This document shows positions 672-22,407 of a DNA stretch of 64,000 nt, in pieces. How positions within the stretch are numbered: position 1 is the stretch's first letter; every line of letters begins with the position of its first letter. The notes beneath the pieces are model-generated. The model did no database searches. It had not been told where the DNA came from and saw nothing but the letters and a program-made list of their open reading frames with translations. This DNA comes from a virus. The stretch spans positions 1 to 64,000 of IMG/VR virus record IMGVR_UViG_3300036817_000176; one strand, given 5' to 3'. Made by a program: the position numbers and the translations under genes.

Positions 672-701
672 CGGCTGGCGAGTCATGAAACTGAGGTTTA
701 C

Positions 702-1010
702 ATGAGCGGTCCCCTCAAGAGGAAGCAAAAACGCGGTAAATCATGGAGCCAGCAGGAGCTCCAGATCATTGACGATAACCGGCACCTGACCGCCATCCAG
801 TTAGCCGAACTGCTCCCCACTCGTACACCGTCGGGTGTTGCCAAAAAGCGCGTCATGCGTCACGGGCGGCGACTGAGTAAAGCGGCAGAGCGGGGTGGAT
901 GGTCTGAGCATGACGAGGCCATCTGCAGGGACTGGAACTGGGCTCATGGCCTGCTGAATGAATGCCAGAAACAAAGACGATTCCGGGAGAAGAGCAATGA
1001 TGATGTTTAA
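702..1010 (+). CDS. hypothetical protein with Myb/SANT-like Trp repeats
   Basis: WSQQELQII...LPTRTPSGVAKKR and WSEHDEAI segments; GAGG RBS. Confidence 0.55.
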   Translation: MSGPLKRKQKRGKSWSQQELQIIDDNRHLTAIQLAELLPTRTPSGVAKKRVMRHGRRLSKAAERGGWSEHDEAICRDWNWAHGLLNECQKQRRFREKSNDDV

Positions 1011-1209
1011 ACGAACAATGGTCGCCACCGCGATCACCACGGCGCTGGCGCAGCAGGCGATTCGGGCTCGCACCCGCGCCGAACAGGAACGCCGTCAGCA
1101 GCTCAAGCAAGCCATCGCGGCCGGGCTGGAAGAGACAGACCAGAAATTCAGCGGCGGCCTTCTGAGCCGCTTCCGCGCCGGGCTGAGCCGCCTGCGCGGC
1201 AAGTCCTGA
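997..1209 (+). CDS. hypothetical protein
   Basis: Overlaps the upstream stop; GGAG-like RBS; co-oriented in the operon. Confidence 0.5.
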   Translation: MMMFKRTMVATAITTALAQQAIRARTRAEQERRQQLKQAIAAGLEETDQKFSGGLLSRFRAGLSRLRGKS

Positions 1210-1228
1210 CCCTCGATTAACCCATTCT

Positions 1229-1978
1229 TTGAGCCTTACACCGATGATTTATACCTCGCCAAATAACGGCACCGACTGGATTCTCGCCGCGAAAGAAACG
1301 TTTGGCACGGATCTGACGCCGGTGCAGCACGAGATCCTGACAGCCATCCAGCGAACCGGCGCCAGCGTGTCGGCAGTTGAAACGGATGGGATGGGCAGGA
1401 GCCGCCTGTATGCGCTTATCTGCGCCTCGGCGGTGCTCCTTAACCCTGAGATTAAGGTGGTGCTCGTATCCACCGACGCAGCCCGCCTGAACAACACCCT
1501 CGGCGAGCTGCACTGCATCATTGCGAATGCCTTTGGTGAGCTGGGCTTCCATCACTCTGCGACGGCGCAGCTGAGCATGACGGTCATGCGGCTGGTGCGC
1601 GATAAGGTCGATTTCCACTATGCCCGGGAAGGGAACGAGGAGGCACTTGCGGGCTACTGCGACCGGCACTCGATTTTTATTCTGGACAATGCCGACCTGC
1701 TGCCAGCCTCGTCGCTGGGGGTGCTGCTGGGGGGCCTCACTGAAGAGGATAACCGCCTGCTGATGGTGTCCGAAGCGTACCGGAACGAGGGCTATTTCTA
1801 CGAAACGCTGCATAACCCCATCCATGAGCATTTCCATCGCGTGCGCAGCAAGTCTACCGATACTCCGCTGGTCACGCCTTCCTGGTGCGAGAAGGCCGCC
1901 GAAACACTTCCCCCGGAGCTCTACCGCCGCCGCATTCTGGGCGAGTTCCCGTTAACGACAATTGAGAAAACCGTATGA
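1229..1978 (+). CDS. degenerate paralog of the terminase (PacB) ATPase domain
   Basis: Aligns by eye to PacB at 20902 (GNEEALAG/GNEESLAG, LTEEDNRLL/LTEEDNRIL, GYFYE/GYFYD, PLVT, GEFP); Walker A and Walker B are altered. Confidence 0.85.
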   Translation: MSLTPMIYTSPNNGTDWILAAKETFGTDLTPVQHEILTAIQRTGASVSAVETDGMGRSRLYALICASAVLLNPEIKVVLVSTDAARLNNTLGELHCIIANAFGELGFHHSATAQLSMTVMRLVRDKVDFHYAREGNEEALAGYCDRHSIFILDNADLLPASSLGVLLGGLTEEDNRLLMVSEAYRNEGYFYETLHNPIHEHFHRVRSKSTDTPLVTPSWCEKAAETLPPELYRRRILGEFPLTTIEKTV

Positions 1979-2508
1979 GTGATAAAACGCTGCAGGTAGT
2001 GGCCATAACGTGCATGGATTCGTTTTACATGCGTGGCATGGATATCCGGCCCGGGAAGCTGCAGGAGGCATTCAACCTCCAGCTCGAGGAGCCGCGAAGC
2101 GTAGAAGATATGGCAACAACGGCGGCCGAGTTTTTTGCTGACAGCGGGAGGATGGTCATTCCGCTGGTGGACGTAACAGGCGCAGGAAAAGCGCTGGCCC
2201 TCGCGCTGCAGGTGAAAGGCTACGACGTGTTCATGTTCAACCCTGCAGCGTTATGCGAACCGGCACACGATGCACAGCGCTTTCTGAATCATCAGGCTAA
2301 GGGCGGCAATCTGTATAACGAGGGGGTTATGGCAGGATGTATCACCTATGTGGATGATACCGCGCCGCAGGAAGTCGAGTTGAACCGGAATGAAAGTGGC
2401 CAGCTGCAGGTACACGCTAAAAGTGGCGAAACACGGCTTTCCTGTATGCTCGGCTGGTTCTGGCATGGGCGTATTCAGGAGCTCACCACAGCGAACTGGT
2501 CAGTCTGA
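1975..2508 (+). CDS. degenerate paralog of the terminase (PacB) nuclease domain
   Basis: VDVTGAGKALALALQVKG..C..HDAQRFLNHQA versus PacB VDGDGVGADTATILEEAG..C..EDKKRFLNKRA; ATGA overlap with the previous gene. Confidence 0.7.
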   Translation: MSDKTLQVVAITCMDSFYMRGMDIRPGKLQEAFNLQLEEPRSVEDMATTAAEFFADSGRMVIPLVDVTGAGKALALALQVKGYDVFMFNPAALCEPAHDAQRFLNHQAKGGNLYNEGVMAGCITYVDDTAPQEVELNRNESGQLQVHAKSGETRLSCMLGWFWHGRIQELTTANWSV

Positions 2509-2529
2509 CGGCACTTCTTGTAAACCTCC

Positions 2530-2572
2530 TTGATCTGCACGCACATTGAAATTACTGTATATACAAACAGTA
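2530..2572 (+). promoter_or_regulatory. SOS promoter with LexA box
   Basis: TACTGTATATACAAACAGTA (CTG-N10-CAG) at 2553-2572 overlaps -10 TACTGT; -35 TTGATC lies 17 bp upstream. Confidence 0.9.
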
Positions 2573-2590
2573 ATAACAGGAGTGCAGATC

Positions 2591-2830
2591 ATGCCCCGCC
2601 TATACGAAATTCATAGCGCATTTGTCGCAGCAATACATCAGAATCCAAAGGGTTTTCAGTGTGTACGCACTGACGATTTCATTCGCCAACTGGCTAAGGT
2701 TCACTGGCATTTCAGCCAGCAAGACGCCAACAACTGGATAGAGCAAAATCAGACATTTTTCGTCGATAAGACACCCGATGACAGCCAGAATCGCCTCTGG
2801 ATGTTGCGTACTATGGGGAGGGTGCTCTGA
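2591..2830 (+). CDS. SOS-inducible small phage protein (usual neighbour of UmuD'-like genes)
   Basis: AGGAG RBS then ATG at 2591, directly after the LexA box. Confidence 0.75.
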   Translation: MPRLYEIHSAFVAAIHQNPKGFQCVRTDDFIRQLAKVHWHFSQQDANNWIEQNQTFFVDKTPDDSQNRLWMLRTMGRVL

Positions 2831-3147
2831 TGGCCTTCGCCTCACCCGCTAACGACTATGTAGAGAGCAGGCTCACTCCAGAGAGGATCTGCGGCGTTGG
2901 CATCGACACCCGCATCATGGACACCTCGACGGGCTTTGCGGTGATTGAGCCCGTCAGCCAGCTCGTTAATGGGCAGGTTTTATTGGTTCTGTCTGGTGGC
3001 CGTACCCAGTTCGCCCGGGTAATGGGCAAGTCGCTTATCTTCAATGATGGCGAGACGATGGAAGGCAGCGCTGCAGAAGAAGTGAATGTTCTTGGCAGGG
3101 TAACTTACTTCATCAACCGTGCGGCTGGTGATGAGTGTCCGGTGTAA
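2830..3147 (+). CDS. UmuD'-like (HumD-like) protein
   Basis: Begins MAFASPANDYVESRL, matching the UmuD' N-terminus GFPSPAADYVE; ends in VLGRVTYFI; no Ser/Lys dyad evident. Confidence 0.7.
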   Translation: MAFASPANDYVESRLTPERICGVGIDTRIMDTSTGFAVIEPVSQLVNGQVLLVLSGGRTQFARVMGKSLIFNDGETMEGSAAEEVNVLGRVTYFINRAAGDECPV

Positions 3148-3164
3148 GTGGGCTGGTGGCTGTT

Positions 3165-3739
3165 TTACCATAGCTCCGCTACTCCTGACGAGCATCACAA
3201 AAAAGCGCGACGCTACAAGCCAGAAGTAGGCGAAACCGTGCCAGCTTTGAGATACCGGCCGTTACCCGCCGGTGCTCCCCTGATTGCGTCCTGACATCAC
3301 ACCCCGTCTCATTTTGCAGCCGGATATCCGCTCTTTCTCCTCGGTGGCGGTATCGCACTCCTCACCTGTTCCGGCACTGCTTGACCTACTGGGTGCTCGC
3401 TCCAACGCTGGGCCTTGTAATCAGACTCCCCGTCTGGCCCAGGCTAACGCGTCCACGCGCGGACTTATCTCTCCACTCCACGTCGCGCAGACACGGCAAA
3501 TCGCCGCCAATGGCGTTAGCCAATGCGGTAGCTGGACTTTGAGAGGGAACGTGCTGAGAATTAGATGGGCAAAAATTGACCCACTGATGCTTGAATGCTC
3601 TGCGTAACGCAGATACACTGATTTTACGTTTAAGGTAGCTGTTCCCTCAAAGTCGCAGTTACCTGGTAAACGTGTCCTGAGAAAACTCGTTTACCCGTTA
3701 AAACCCTGCGCCTGAGAACGCGGGGTTTTTTCGTTTCTG
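3165..3739 (-). ncRNA. RNA II-like replication pre-primer (~575 nt)
   Basis: Minus-strand promoter TTCCCG-17bp-TAAGGT (3774-3746); 5' end AGAAACGAAAAAACCCC resembles ColE1 RNA II; alpha/beta complementarity between 3641-3663 and 3527-3550. Confidence 0.8.
3626..3735 (+). ncRNA. RNA I-like antisense copy-control RNA (~110 nt, three stem-loops)
   Basis: Promoter TTGAAT-17bp-TACACT (3591-3619); stems 3633-3664, 3665-3695 and 3700-3731, the last ending in a U-tract. Confidence 0.85.
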
Positions 3740-19489: not shown

Positions 19490-20902
19490 GTGGCAAAGAC
19501 CGACTGGCAGTATCACATAGCTAATTATCTGGAAAATTTCGCCAGCACGCTGACGCTGGCGCAATACGCCGATGCTAATGGTCTTAACCCGAACACCGTC
19601 CGTCGTGAAATGAAGCCCGCGATCAACGTGGCGCTGGCTGGCCAGCCCACCGATAAGAAACCCGCCACCAGAAGCAAGAAGCCCCCCAAAACCCCCGACG
19701 AACCGACACCTGTCCTGAAGGTCGGCAAGGTGCTGCGCGGTGAAGTCCGCCAGATGTCCGCCGACCAGCGCGCCGCCCGAAAACGTGATCAAAAAAGTGA
19801 TCAAATCAGTGATCAAAACGGTGGTGATCAAAAATCTGATCACAATCAGGGTGATCACAATAAGGGGCGAGGAAAGCGGGAACCCGCAGCCGGTAAGGCT
19901 CCGGCGGGAGGTAAGGGGAAAAAAGCGGGGGGCGACACACACGCTGATCACCCGGCCAGCGCGCGTGATCAGAATTTCCGGGTTCATACACCGACGCGCC
20001 CAAATGATGCCGCGTTGCCCGCGTTATGCGGCGAGGTGGGCGGCACCCATAACATGGATTTCGGCGGTTACTGTTCGCTGCTGGAAATGGACGACGACAT
20101 CGTGGAGCTGGCGCTGGCCACCGGGCTGGATAACCGCGACCTCGTTTTAGCCCAGGGCCGGTACATGACCATGTACCGCAAGCAAAACCAGATCCTCAAG
20201 AAGATAGCCGAGGACTACGACCGCGAGCCGTGGGTGGATGACGAAGGCGTGCCGATGCCGCGCGACCAGGTTGAGGCGCAGGCTATCTTCGGCACCAGTC
20301 AGCGCATGACCGAGCTGGAGGCGGCGATCGCCCGCCACAAGCTGGGGCTGATGAAGCTCGAGCTCGAGCGGCAGAAACAGGCCCTCGATGTCCGCAAGCA
20401 GGCACTGGCGGAGTGGAACCGGCACCCGATGCCGCTGGCCGAGCGTATCGAGCGTACCCGGGCGCTGATGCTTCACCGCGAAGAAAATGAGCTGACGGCG
20501 CTGGAGACGGCGCGCCTGTTCGACCTCGAACACCTCGAATACCCGCCGTCCCTGCAGGCGGAAATGCTCAAAGAGGTATCCTGGCTTGAGCAGACTGCAG
20601 ACCAGCACGGCGGCGTCACTGACGATGAGCTGGAAGCCGAGTCCCGCGAATACCGCGAGAAACAGCGGCAGGTGCGCGAAGAGTGGCTTCCGGCCCGTGA
20701 TGAAGAGATTGCATCCATCATCGCCAACGAGGCCGCACACCAGGCCGGTGAGCTCCTGCAGGAGGGCGATTTCACCGGCACCGATGATTCTGGCGGGGAG
20801 GGCGTGCTGGTTGGCGACGACGTGGACGCATGGAACCCTGATGACGCCCTTCCTGATGAAGACGACGCCGACCCGGACGCTGAGCCGGTGGAGACCTGGT
20901 AA
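19490..20902 (+). CDS. pacA: terminase small subunit PacA
   Basis: N-terminal HTH LAQYADANGLNPNTVRRE; contains the TGATCA array; directly precedes pacB. Confidence 0.85.
   Translation: MAKTDWQYHIANYLENFASTLTLAQYADANGLNPNTVRREMKPAINVALAGQPTDKKPATRSKKPPKTPDEPTPVLKVGKVLRGEVRQMSADQRAARKRDQKSDQISDQNGGDQKSDHNQGDHNKGRGKREPAAGKAPAGGKGKKAGGDTHADHPASARDQNFRVHTPTRPNDAALPALCGEVGGTHNMDFGGYCSLLEMDDDIVELALATGLDNRDLVLAQGRYMTMYRKQNQILKKIAEDYDREPWVDDEGVPMPRDQVEAQAIFGTSQRMTELEAAIARHKLGLMKLELERQKQALDVRKQALAEWNRHPMPLAERIERTRALMLHREENELTALETARLFDLEHLEYPPSLQAEMLKEVSWLEQTADQHGGVTDDELEAESREYREKQRQVREEWLPARDEEIASIIANEAAHQAGELLQEGDFTGTDDSGGEGVLVGDDVDAWNPDDALPDEDDADPDAEPVETW
19786..19971 (+). repeat. pac site (six plus two TGATCA hexamers)
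   Basis: TGATCA at 19786, 19798, 19810, 19825, 19837 and 19852, then an 87-bp gap, then 19945 and 19966; same layout as the P1 pac site. Confidence 0.9.
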
Positions 20903-22407
20903 TGGGCAAGATACGCTCTATTACCCGCGACCCGCGCTACCGGGACCTGGTGCGCCGGTACCGTTACGACTGGACGACGGCCGCGGTGGAGCTGTTCGGC
21001 AAACACCCCACCTGGCAGCAGGAGCTGATCCTTAACTCTGCGCAGGAAACCGGCGCCAAGACGGCCGTCTCTTCCGGCCACGGTACCGGCAAGTCGGACA
21101 TGACCAGTATCATGATCCTTATCTACATGCTGTGCTTCCCCGGCGCGCGCGTGGTGGTGGTGGCCAACAAAATCGGCCAGGTGCAGCAGGTGGTCTGGAA
21201 GTACCTCAAAATCAACTATCGTGAGCTCTGCCGCCGTCACCCATGGGTGGAGCAGTATTTCGTGCTGACGGAAACCACCTTCTTCGAGCGCTCCAGTAAG
21301 GGCGTCTGGTTCGTCAGTCCGAAAGGTTGCCGTATCGGTAACGAAGAATCCCTCGCCGGTGAGCACGCCAAACACCTCTTCTACATCGTCGATGAGGCCT
21401 CTGGCGTCTCGGATAAGGCCTTTGGGGTGATGACCGGTGCTCTGACCGAGGAAGACAACCGCATCCTGCTGCTGAGCCAGCCAACGCGTCCAAGCGGCTA
21501 CTTCTACGATTGTCACCACAAGCTGGCCAAGCGCCACCCGGGCGACAAGGAAGGCTACACGGCGATCAAGCTCAACTCCGAGCAGTCACCGCTGGTTACC
21601 ACGGCGTTTATCCGTACCAAGATCCGCGAATATGGCGGCTCCCGTGACGCGCCGGAATACATGATTAAGGTCCGGGGCGAGTTCCCGCGCACCAGCGCCG
21701 CTAACCTGCTGTCGCGCGACGAGTGCGAACGCGCCACCAAATCCACGCCGAAGCTGGCCAAGGGCTGGGGCTGGCTGCTGCTGGCCGACGTGGGCAACGG
21801 CCGCGACAGCTCCGTGGCCACCCTGGTACGCGTCAGTGGCGACCGCTACGAGCGCCGCGTGGTGCCGGTGTCCGTGAAGGAATGGCCGGGTACCATCGAT
21901 CCGGTGAATTTCGGCCGCCTGCTGGCCGCTGAGTACACGACGGACCAGTACCCGAACCTTTCCATCGCTGTCGATGGCGACGGCGTAGGGGCCGATACAG
22001 CGACGATTCTGGAGGAGGCCGGTCGGCAGGTGCAGCGCATCCGCTGGGGCCAGCCGTGCTTCTCCCAGGAAGATAAGAAACGCTTCCTCAATAAACGCGC
22101 CTACGCGAACATCATGGCACGCGATGCCGTGCGAACCGGCCGCCTGCGCCTCGACCGGCACGAGAAGACCCTCGATCAGGCCTCGCGCCTCCCGTGCAAG
22201 CTGAATGAGCAGGGGCTCTGGTGCATGATGCCGAAAGAGACAATGCGCAAGGAGCTGGGCCTGCCGTCTCCTGACCGCTGGGATACGTATTGCTTCAGCT
22301 TTATGGCAGATTATGTCCCGGCAGAAATGGTCATTACCGGCGATATGGTCAAGGAGCGTGAGTCGGTGGCGGGATGGGCGCGGGATCTTGTTGCAGAGGA
22401 TGTCTGA
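20902..22407 (+). CDS. pacB: terminase large subunit PacB
   Basis: Walker A SGHGTGKS, Walker B IVDEA, nuclease ADVG, VDGDG and SPDRWD. Confidence 0.95.
   Translation: MGKIRSITRDPRYRDLVRRYRYDWTTAAVELFGKHPTWQQELILNSAQETGAKTAVSSGHGTGKSDMTSIMILIYMLCFPGARVVVVANKIGQVQQVVWKYLKINYRELCRRHPWVEQYFVLTETTFFERSSKGVWFVSPKGCRIGNEESLAGEHAKHLFYIVDEASGVSDKAFGVMTGALTEEDNRILLLSQPTRPSGYFYDCHHKLAKRHPGDKEGYTAIKLNSEQSPLVTTAFIRTKIREYGGSRDAPEYMIKVRGEFPRTSAANLLSRDECERATKSTPKLAKGWGWLLLADVGNGRDSSVATLVRVSGDRYERRVVPVSVKEWPGTIDPVNFGRLLAAEYTTDQYPNLSIAVDGDGVGADTATILEEAGRQVQRIRWGQPCFSQEDKKRFLNKRAYANIMARDAVRTGRLRLDRHEKTLDQASRLPCKLNEQGLWCMMPKETMRKELGLPSPDRWDTYCFSFMADYVPAEMVITGDMVKERESVAGWARDLVAEDV

Follow-up and report, generated by a model that had tools for sequence, protein, structure and literature searches.

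The IMG/VR virus record IMGVR_UViG_3300036817_000176, of which the first 64 kb were analysed (positions 1 to 64,000; hereafter the window), represents a P1-like phage-plasmid that encodes, in addition to a complete large terminase (TerL) of the PacB type, two overlapping open reading frames (ORFs) of terminase ancestry. These reading frames, ORF A (1244-1978, + strand) and ORF B (1975-2508, + strand), correspond to the ATPase and nuclease domains of an old P1-type PacB duplicate, which was cut at the interdomain linker and lost catalytic residues in both halves. ORF A is an old PacB paralog under purifying selection and forms the conserved unit on its own, and ORF B is an optional partner retained in one sublineage. 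ORF A is best read as a putative terminase look-alike that binds without hydrolysing ATP. The complete record comprises 85,946 bp with 127-bp terminal repeats, which indicates a circular assembly, and its gene content includes pacA-pacB, a PmgS-like head gene, a humD-like gene, methyltransferases and a VRR-NUC gene. The Leclercia plasmids pM17-63 and pW17-2 are its nearest named relatives, with a DNA identity of ~88-92% where the sequences are alignable.

Two halves of an old PacB duplicate

The genuine large terminase of the element, PacB (501 amino acids; 20902-22407, + strand), is encoded directly downstream of pacA (19490-20902) and matches phrog_5902 (8.7e-117) and phrog_2 (2.2e-38). Its motifs GKS, DE, ADVG, DGDG and SPDRWD are intact, and it shares ~54-57% identity with the PacBs of P1, D6, JK004 and RCS47 and 36% with the TerL of Xanthomonas phage Rb1, which was included as an outgroup. 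No relative of PacB was detectable by sequence among solved structures, so that motifs were assigned from the alignment to PacB and from predicted secondary structure. As this complete PacB coexists with ORF A and ORF B in the same genome, the split pair is not the sole terminase of the element.

ORF A encodes a stand-alone protein of 244 amino acids that is paralogous to the ATPase domain of PacB but altered in its catalytic motifs (pseudo-ATPase). The original prediction had placed its start at a TTG codon (position 1229), five codons upstream of the ATG at 1244; the latter was adopted here, in agreement with the 244-amino-acid calls of the Prokaryotic Genome Annotation Pipeline (PGAP) in relatives. 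The protein aligns with residues 23-265 of the element's PacB at 31% identity (BLASTP, E 3e-28), shows ~26-31% identity to the P1-type PacBs included in the comparison (window, P1, D6, RCS47 and JK004), and also matches phrog_5902 (1.9e-33). Neither ORF A nor ORF B has a match in Pfam, NCBIfam or PADLOC. The motif changes that had been read from the sequence alone are borne out by the alignment. A pseudo-Walker A motif, T47-D-G-M-G-R-S53 (1382-1402, + strand), replaces the GHGTGKS P-loop of PacB, and a pseudo-Walker B motif, D148-N149 (1685-1690, + strand; ILDNAD versus IVDEAS in PacB), replaces D164-E165. Across 12 clusters of homologous proteins, G49, M50, G51 and R52 are invariant and S53 is almost invariant; D148, N149 and A150 are invariant without exception. 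The Walker A lysine is thus an arginine and the Walker B glutamate an asparagine in every cluster of the family (12/12), and ORF A lacks both the Walker A lysine (GxGKS/T) and the catalytic Walker B glutamate (hhhhDE) of active TerLs. The residue of the Q-motif, the glycines and the serine of the P-loop and the aspartate of Walker B are all retained.

The sequence match to PacB and the predicted structure jointly assign ORF A to the TerL-type fold of the additional strand catalytic E (ASCE) ATPases. In the model (predicted local distance difference test, pLDDT, 70.7), the pseudo-Walker A motif lies between a strand (residues 41-46) and a helix (residues 52-66), and the pseudo-Walker B motif is placed at the end of strand 143-148. 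The best structural match was the ATPase domain of the P74-26 TerL (VIA Z 14.7, 198 residues, root-mean-square deviation 4.3), followed by T4 gp17 (Z 13.6), the HK97 TerL (13.5) and then helicases at 12-13. A search of the ESM Atlas recovered solely TerL-ATPase-type clusters of ~230-280 amino acids and nothing beyond the fold.

ORF B encodes a 177-amino-acid paralog of the RNase H-like nuclease domain of PacB in which most catalytic acids are missing. Pairwise alignment matches it to PacB residues 342-434 (E 4e-5), and profile-profile comparison aligns ORF B residues 64-150 with PacB residues 356-446 (hhalign probability 94%, E 1.1e-7). Its model (pLDDT 63) is well defined at residues 1-90 and shows the beta-beta-beta-alpha-beta-alpha-beta order of RNase H-like nucleases. 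All of its top eight structural matches are terminase nucleases, including those of RB49 and T4 gp17 (Z 11.8 and 11.4), E217 and D6E, followed by G20c at Z 9.9. The only nuclease acid of PacB kept in ORF B is D66 (2170-2172, + strand), which corresponds in the alignments and in hhalign to the aspartate of AVDGDG (PacB D358) and reads LVD. The PacB-invariant residues D296 (ADVG) and D458/D461 (SPDRWD) have no acidic counterpart and face VVAITC and LSxMLGxxWH, respectively, so that the reported absence of these acids holds and the nuclease is left with one of its three acidic sites. A nuclease domain with acidic metal-binding residues on the same chain as the ATPase is therefore not found; the fold is present on a separate ORF. 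Structure prediction and alignment to PacB, the check put forward with the original prediction, identify a TerL ATPase fold in ORF A and a TerL nuclease fold in ORF B. The alignment also recovers the non-catalytic blocks GNEExLAG, LTEEDNR, GYFY, GEFP and RFLN that had been described as kept, along with the Q-motif region and SPLV.

Both frames are intact, and the stop codon of ORF A overlaps the start codon of ORF B in an ATGA sequence (1975-1978, + strand), which points to translational coupling. ORF A ends at the GEFP block of PacB, and the start of ORF B coincides with that of the PacB nuclease domain; the break therefore lies in the interdomain linker. Expression as a frameshift fusion was ruled out, as the ORF B frame contains a stop three codons upstream of its ATG and no canonical slippery site is present, which argues for two separate proteins. 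No longer, fused relatives of ORF A were found in a search that counts as weak evidence.

Ancestry, distribution and selection

In a maximum-likelihood phylogeny of the ATPase domains with two distant TerLs as the root, the ORF A family occupied one long branch outside all PacBs. Forcing the family together with the PacB of the window cost 22 log-likelihood units and was rejected by the approximately unbiased test (p-AU 0.0008). A split, degenerate terminase pair had been proposed as a copy of this phage's own PacB; both halves do match PacB in sequence and fold, but a recent origin from the element's own gene is thereby rejected.

A second dead paralog of the PacB ATPase domain was spotted among the second tblastn matches in three Punavirus records, namely vB_EcoM-813R1 (ON470617.2, protein WMM35455.1), MH422554.1 and MH445380.1. 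This 356-amino-acid protein is part of phrog_5902 ('unknown function'), is annotated as hypothetical, and reads GIGET for GTGKS and VINSA for IDEAS. It lacks a nuclease domain and ends in an unrelated tail of ~85 amino acids. The gene lies between ssb and hxr, where P1 carries isaA/IS1/isaB (ON470617.2, 660-2511), and is coupled to an overlapping upstream gene of 262 amino acids that is isaA-like; no PacA-like partner was identified upstream of it. In the literature, this locus is given only as 'orfs of unknown function' at isaA/isaB (PMC6906374), and no description was found of inactive terminase paralogs like ORF A or of terminase decoys.

Like ORF A, the Punavirus protein is a nuclease-less PacB ATPase paralog with both catalytic residues replaced, and it shares the blocks LTPxQ, AIxxTGAxV and YRRxILGxFP with ORF A rather than with PacB. 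They nevertheless differ in overall sequence (29% identity), in the replacements themselves, in the presence of the unrelated tail instead of a separate nuclease-like ORF B, and in their loci, as ORF A ends an operon of a helix-turn-helix (HTH) gene and an MT-A70 methyltransferase gene upstream of humD rather than following an isaA-like gene between ssb and hxr. A clade of the Punavirus paralog with Punavirus PacB was likewise rejected (p-AU 0.0012). The Punavirus paralog and the ORF A family group with 97/92 support, the alternative being weakly rejected (p-AU 0.039); both branches are long, and the grouping may reflect long-branch attraction. As the Punavirus protein is also dead and nuclease-less, the ATPase-like half appears to be a recurrently kept piece.

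A search of ~5.8 billion proteins identified homologs of ORF A in the 12 clusters mentioned above (51-100% identity), all of them 236-244 amino acids in length and encoded on contigs of ~64-100 kb. Named sources include Leclercia adecarboxylata and Citrobacter freundii. The loops of the former active site are the best-kept stretches of the protein. Around the P-loop, 16 of the 22 residues 42-63 are invariant, G130, E132, E133, L135, A136 and G137 of the GNEExLAG block are likewise invariant, and TEEDNR, VSEA and GYFY are mostly so.

Rates of non-synonymous to synonymous substitution (dN/dS; Nei-Gojobori, five DNA sequences) ranged from 0.15 to 0.44 for ORF A. Bootstrap limits were obtained for three pairs, with values of 0.36 (0.23-0.58; window versus pM17-63, the closest pair), 0.22 (0.15-0.34) and 0.15 (0.05-0.37). 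Between the window and pM17-63, no amino acid change was found in ORF A residues 42-124 despite a dS of 0.18. At similar dS, the same pair gave dN/dS values of 0.07 for PacB, 0.06 for humD and 0.09 for MT-A70. No sign of positive selection was detected when ORF A was divided into quarters, the highest quarter having a dN/dS of <= 0.6. ORF A is thus under purifying selection, although less tightly than core genes, and combines lost catalytic residues with an intact frame and a dN/dS well below 1, as expected of a pseudo-enzyme under selection. The earlier argument that the ORFs reflect selection rather than decay accordingly holds for ORF A, which is intact in all 12 clusters. For ORF B, support for selection comes from the protein level, with four intact homologs and 50 invariant columns.

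ORF B is far less widespread. Only four homologous clusters were identified (98, 87, 64 and 41% identity), all intact at 167-177 amino acids. In one relative, a base is inserted behind position 2381 and another is missing at 2385, which restores the frame within a few bases. The idea of a conserved two-gene unit did not survive comparison with relatives, as ORF B is absent from all six with readable DNA (four Leclercia plasmids and two metagenome contigs), each of which carries ORF A or a remnant of it. In pM17-63, homology ends at window position 1951 and a higA-like regulator follows; pW17-2 retains only a 115-amino-acid tail of ORF A beside IS1 and higBA. ORF A is followed by a PemK/MazF-type module in pZ96-1_2 and pE1_003, and by an unrelated gene of 133 amino acids and parM in the two metagenome contigs. 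The conserved unit is therefore ORF A alone, and the space behind it serves as a cargo slot.

The insertion of higBA in some Leclercia records further removed the last ~14 residues of ORF A, and with them the RRILGEFP block. At this junction (P0039, P0016, P0041; L004, 2993-4802), the ORF A frame reads via a spacer into higB, giving products of 206-363 amino acids annotated as 'HigB family toxin'. These are probably junction annotation artefacts rather than true fusions.

A search for further loci with the alignments of ORF A and ORF B found none in viral or genome contigs and two in metagenome contigs. Megablast of window positions 700-3200 against phages and tblastn of ORF B against phages and plasmids returned no match. 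In the two metagenome contigs (L008, 5547-6263; L007, 4113-4793), the ORF A homolog reads TDEMGRS, with a glycine of the pseudo-P-loop replaced by glutamate, and lies ~3.5 kb upstream of pacA-pacB. The gene for PacB itself is present in every relative checked, but is interrupted in pE1_003 (NZ_CP042508.1), where it matches in two pieces (77782-78588 and 82189-82902) separated by ~3.6 kb, the first of which contains a stop. In this plasmid, the real terminase gene appears to be interrupted while the ORF A homolog is intact.

Operon context and transcription

ORF A and ORF B are not part of the packaging operon, as pacA-pacB is located at 19490-22407. On the circular genome, they end a unit consisting of a small HTH gene (85412), the MT-A70 methyltransferase gene (85750 to window position 671), two ORFs of 102 and 68 amino acids, ORF A and ORF B. 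The unit starts after three AAAATATTT boxes beside the iterons of the plasmid origin. The motif ACATCCTAAS, which occurs across the element and of which the window contains 10 exact copies, does not precede this unit. The early-region placement suggested in the original prediction therefore agrees with an operon that begins at the HTH gene beside the plasmid origin and lacks this motif.

Upstream, across the circle junction, genome positions 84601-85300 contain iteron-like repeats (CCACTTATGGCTACATCG, 3-4 copies) and GATC clusters in addition to the three AAAATATTT boxes. The two small ORFs between the MT-A70 gene and ORF A (702-1209) are conserved. The first, of 102 amino acids, shows a weak match to phrog_323 ('D5-like regulator') and a dN/dS of 0.12 versus pM17-63; the second, of 68 amino acids, encodes a helical, Arg/Gln-rich protein with a dN/dS of 0.59 in the same comparison. 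A PacA-like partner upstream of ORF A was considered and rejected, as none of the upstream ORFs resembles PacA. Directly after ORF B, ahead of a phrog_3893 gene (2591-2830) and the humD-like gene (2830-3147), a LexA-box-like perfect palindrome, TACTGTATATACAAACAGTA (2553-2572, + strand), was identified, which is the sole CTGT-N8-ACAG in the 85.9-kb genome and likely marks the 3' limit of the unit.

Expression was assessed with Logan contigs from a transcriptomic run of a related strain (~90% identical), i.e., with assembled contigs rather than raw reads and with growth conditions that are not known. The contigs cover positions 1-1951 at a depth of 69, 2060-2510 at 37.5 and 2609-3300 at 481. 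They break between 2510 and 2609, in the region of the LexA-like box, with a depth of 37.5 before the gap and of 481 behind it. Both the unevenness of the depths and the position of this break argue for RNA rather than contaminating DNA, which hints that both ORFs are transcribed in the cultured related strain. A metatranscriptome run (X19) contained one 182-base contig inside ORF B at a depth of 3, which is too little to count.

Putative functions and relation to known systems

In its best reading, as a non-hydrolysing, binding-only look-alike, ORF A would be a pseudo-enzyme in which the terminase ATPase fold is preserved and which may still hold nucleotide without hydrolysing it efficiently. 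In ASCE ATPases, the same pattern of kept and lost residues is made deliberately to obtain a subunit without ATP turnover. Such a protein might act by binding a packaging partner, be it PacA, PacB, the portal or pac DNA. We tentatively propose, at somewhat less than even confidence, that ORF A is a putative binding-only brake or poison on the packaging system, a role suggested by its position next to the plasmid origin, in an operon of non-late type, and by its apparent transcription in a cultured strain with a related element. Produced from this operon, ORF A could protect the plasmid prophage against cleavage by stray pacase; in a second variant, it would disturb the terminase of superinfecting relatives. 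An inhibition or a timing of packaging, as considered in the original prediction, is likewise conceivable. In elements that encode ORF B, translational coupling would provide a non-cutting nuclease-domain partner in step with ORF A. T4 motors doped with ATPase-defective gp17 show lowered DNA engagement, velocity and packaging success, which indicates that a dead subunit can impair a terminase ring (PMC8589836).

Several observations weigh against such a brake. The T4 motor tolerates one inactive subunit, so that poisoning need not be strong (PMC8589836), and P1 packages its DNA without any ORF A-like gene. The gene is truncated in some relatives, as seen in the 115-residue remnant at IS1/higBA and in the read-through into higB, and is therefore dispensable, and a dN/dS 4-5 times that of PacB and neighbouring genes points to relaxed constraint. 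The TDEMGRS variant of the two metagenome contigs weakens the idea of nucleotide binding. Furthermore, ORF A lacks both the conserved N-terminal helix of PacB (DPRWRxLVxRYRYDW) and a nuclease domain, either of which might be required for docking on PacA or the portal. The RNA evidence, finally, derives from assembled contigs and growth conditions that are not known.

The same location and apparent transcription would also suit a role outside packaging, in which the ATPase fold was co-opted, as a switch or binding protein, for a function of the plasmid state, candidates being prophage-encoded exclusion or defence, control of an adjacent addiction module and origin-proximal DNA handling. We regard this as possible, if somewhat unlikely. 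ORF A shares its operon with the HTH and MT-A70 genes beside the iterons, and changes faster than its neighbours, as is common for conflict genes, but no segment of it has a dN/dS >1 and the searches of PADLOC, NCBIfam and Pfam returned no match. Toxin-antitoxin modules (higA, higBA or PemK/MazF type) repeatedly lie next downstream in relatives; as the module varies between them, and neither the window nor L008 contains one, this adjacency is more suggestive of a shared cargo slot than of a functional unit. The higher dN/dS, the missing catalytic residues, the truncation of ORF A in some relatives and the loss or replacement of ORF B in most of them would all be expected of a functionless relic, i.e., a duplicated or recombined pacB in slow decay. 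Overall, this is quite unlikely, since the reading frame of ORF A is intact at 236-244 amino acids in 12 clusters, the bootstrap limits of dN/dS exclude 1, and the former active-site loops are the most conserved parts. Decay is more probable for ORF B taken alone, although each of its homologs at 87, 64 and 41% identity has an intact frame and 50 columns are invariant, and the only pair of indels seen restores the frame.

The original prediction had also considered an immune decoy, a look-alike that binds Avs-type STAND receptors without activating them and thereby shields the real PacB. A retained ATPase fold whose sequence surface evolves faster than that of PacB would fit such a protein, as would a position outside the late unit, which makes early production possible. 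However, it is the binding of the target fold that activates Avs sensors (PMC13581612), and Ksap2, a small phage protein with weak likeness to the TerL ATPase, activates KpAvs2 instead of blocking it (PMC11564622). As terminase-fold proteins bind and activate these sensors, a look-alike is more likely to be an Avs trigger than a titrant, and one made in the lysogen would risk autoimmunity in Avs-bearing hosts. No link of ORF A to Avs was seen within the window, no terminase decoy was found in the papers searched, and there was no match in PADLOC, whose models cover defence and not anti-defence. We consider a decoy role very unlikely. It is extremely improbable that the pair is a working two-piece terminase with unusual catalytic residues and a second packaging specificity for a satellite or another pac site. 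Both domains are present, in the correct order and translationally coupled; however, a functional split terminase would require two catalytic halves that form the only terminase of the genome, whereas here the Walker A lysine, the Walker B glutamate and two of three nuclease acidic sites are replaced or missing and a complete PacB is present. In addition, no second pacA-like gene is adjacent, and most relatives lack ORF B.

The proposal of a binding-only brake could be extended to the Punavirus protein linked to isaA. ORF A and this protein might form one ancient family of natural dominant-negative terminase subunits, nucleotide-holding but hydrolysis-dead, which plasmid prophages would express outside the late programme to poison terminase rings or pacase complexes, either against self-cleavage at pac or against the packaging of superinfecting relatives. 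The pair of ORF A and ORF B would then be an intermediate between a full-length duplicate and the nuclease-less form. This broader scheme is speculative and, in our judgement, unlikely.

Large terminases are regarded as single-copy, essential and strictly catalytic hallmark genes of phages, and as main targets of several bacterial immune receptors. A selected, catalytically dead paralog in phage-plasmids implies that the terminase fold also has a non-enzymatic job. With both dead halves kept as coupled genes, nuclease-less forms would stem from full-length duplicates by a split followed by loss of the nuclease. If ORF A inhibits pacase or rival terminases, it would represent a new kind of control acting on DNA packaging, on transduction and on the competition between phage-plasmids, elements by which resistance genes are spread in Enterobacteriaceae. 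Should it interact with Avs-type sensors, it would be relevant to the response of phages to immune recognition at the level of the fold. As a terminase-derived pseudo-enzyme, the pair is of particular value for preserving a split intermediate in which both halves are dead.

The closest experimental counterparts of ORF A are the ATPase-defective mutants of T4 gp17 (PMC8589836), which likewise have a terminase ATPase fold without hydrolysis and which enter the ring. These mutants are full-length laboratory point mutants, whereas ORF A is a natural, long-diverged and nuclease-less paralog whose entry into a ring is hypothetical. Compared with the PacBs of P1 and P1/D6-type phages, ORF A and ORF B retain the two domains in the same order, the ASCE ATPase first and the RNase H-like nuclease second, at 26-31% identity and with shared blocks in both domains. 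They differ from PacB in being two genes, in the replacement of Lys by Arg and of Glu by Asn, and in the loss of D296, D458 and D461. ORF A furthermore lacks the first ~22 residues of PacB, is encoded away from pacA and outside a late-type unit, is dispensable in relatives and forms a long separate branch. Small accessory proteins of satellites, such as Ppi of the Staphylococcus aureus pathogenicity islands (SaPIs) and Rpp of the phage-inducible chromosomal islands (PICIs), also act on phage terminase by binding rather than by catalysis. In contrast to ORF A, which is related to TerL and carried by the phage-plasmid itself, Ppi and Rpp are satellite-encoded, target the small terminase, and are unrelated to TerL in sequence and fold.

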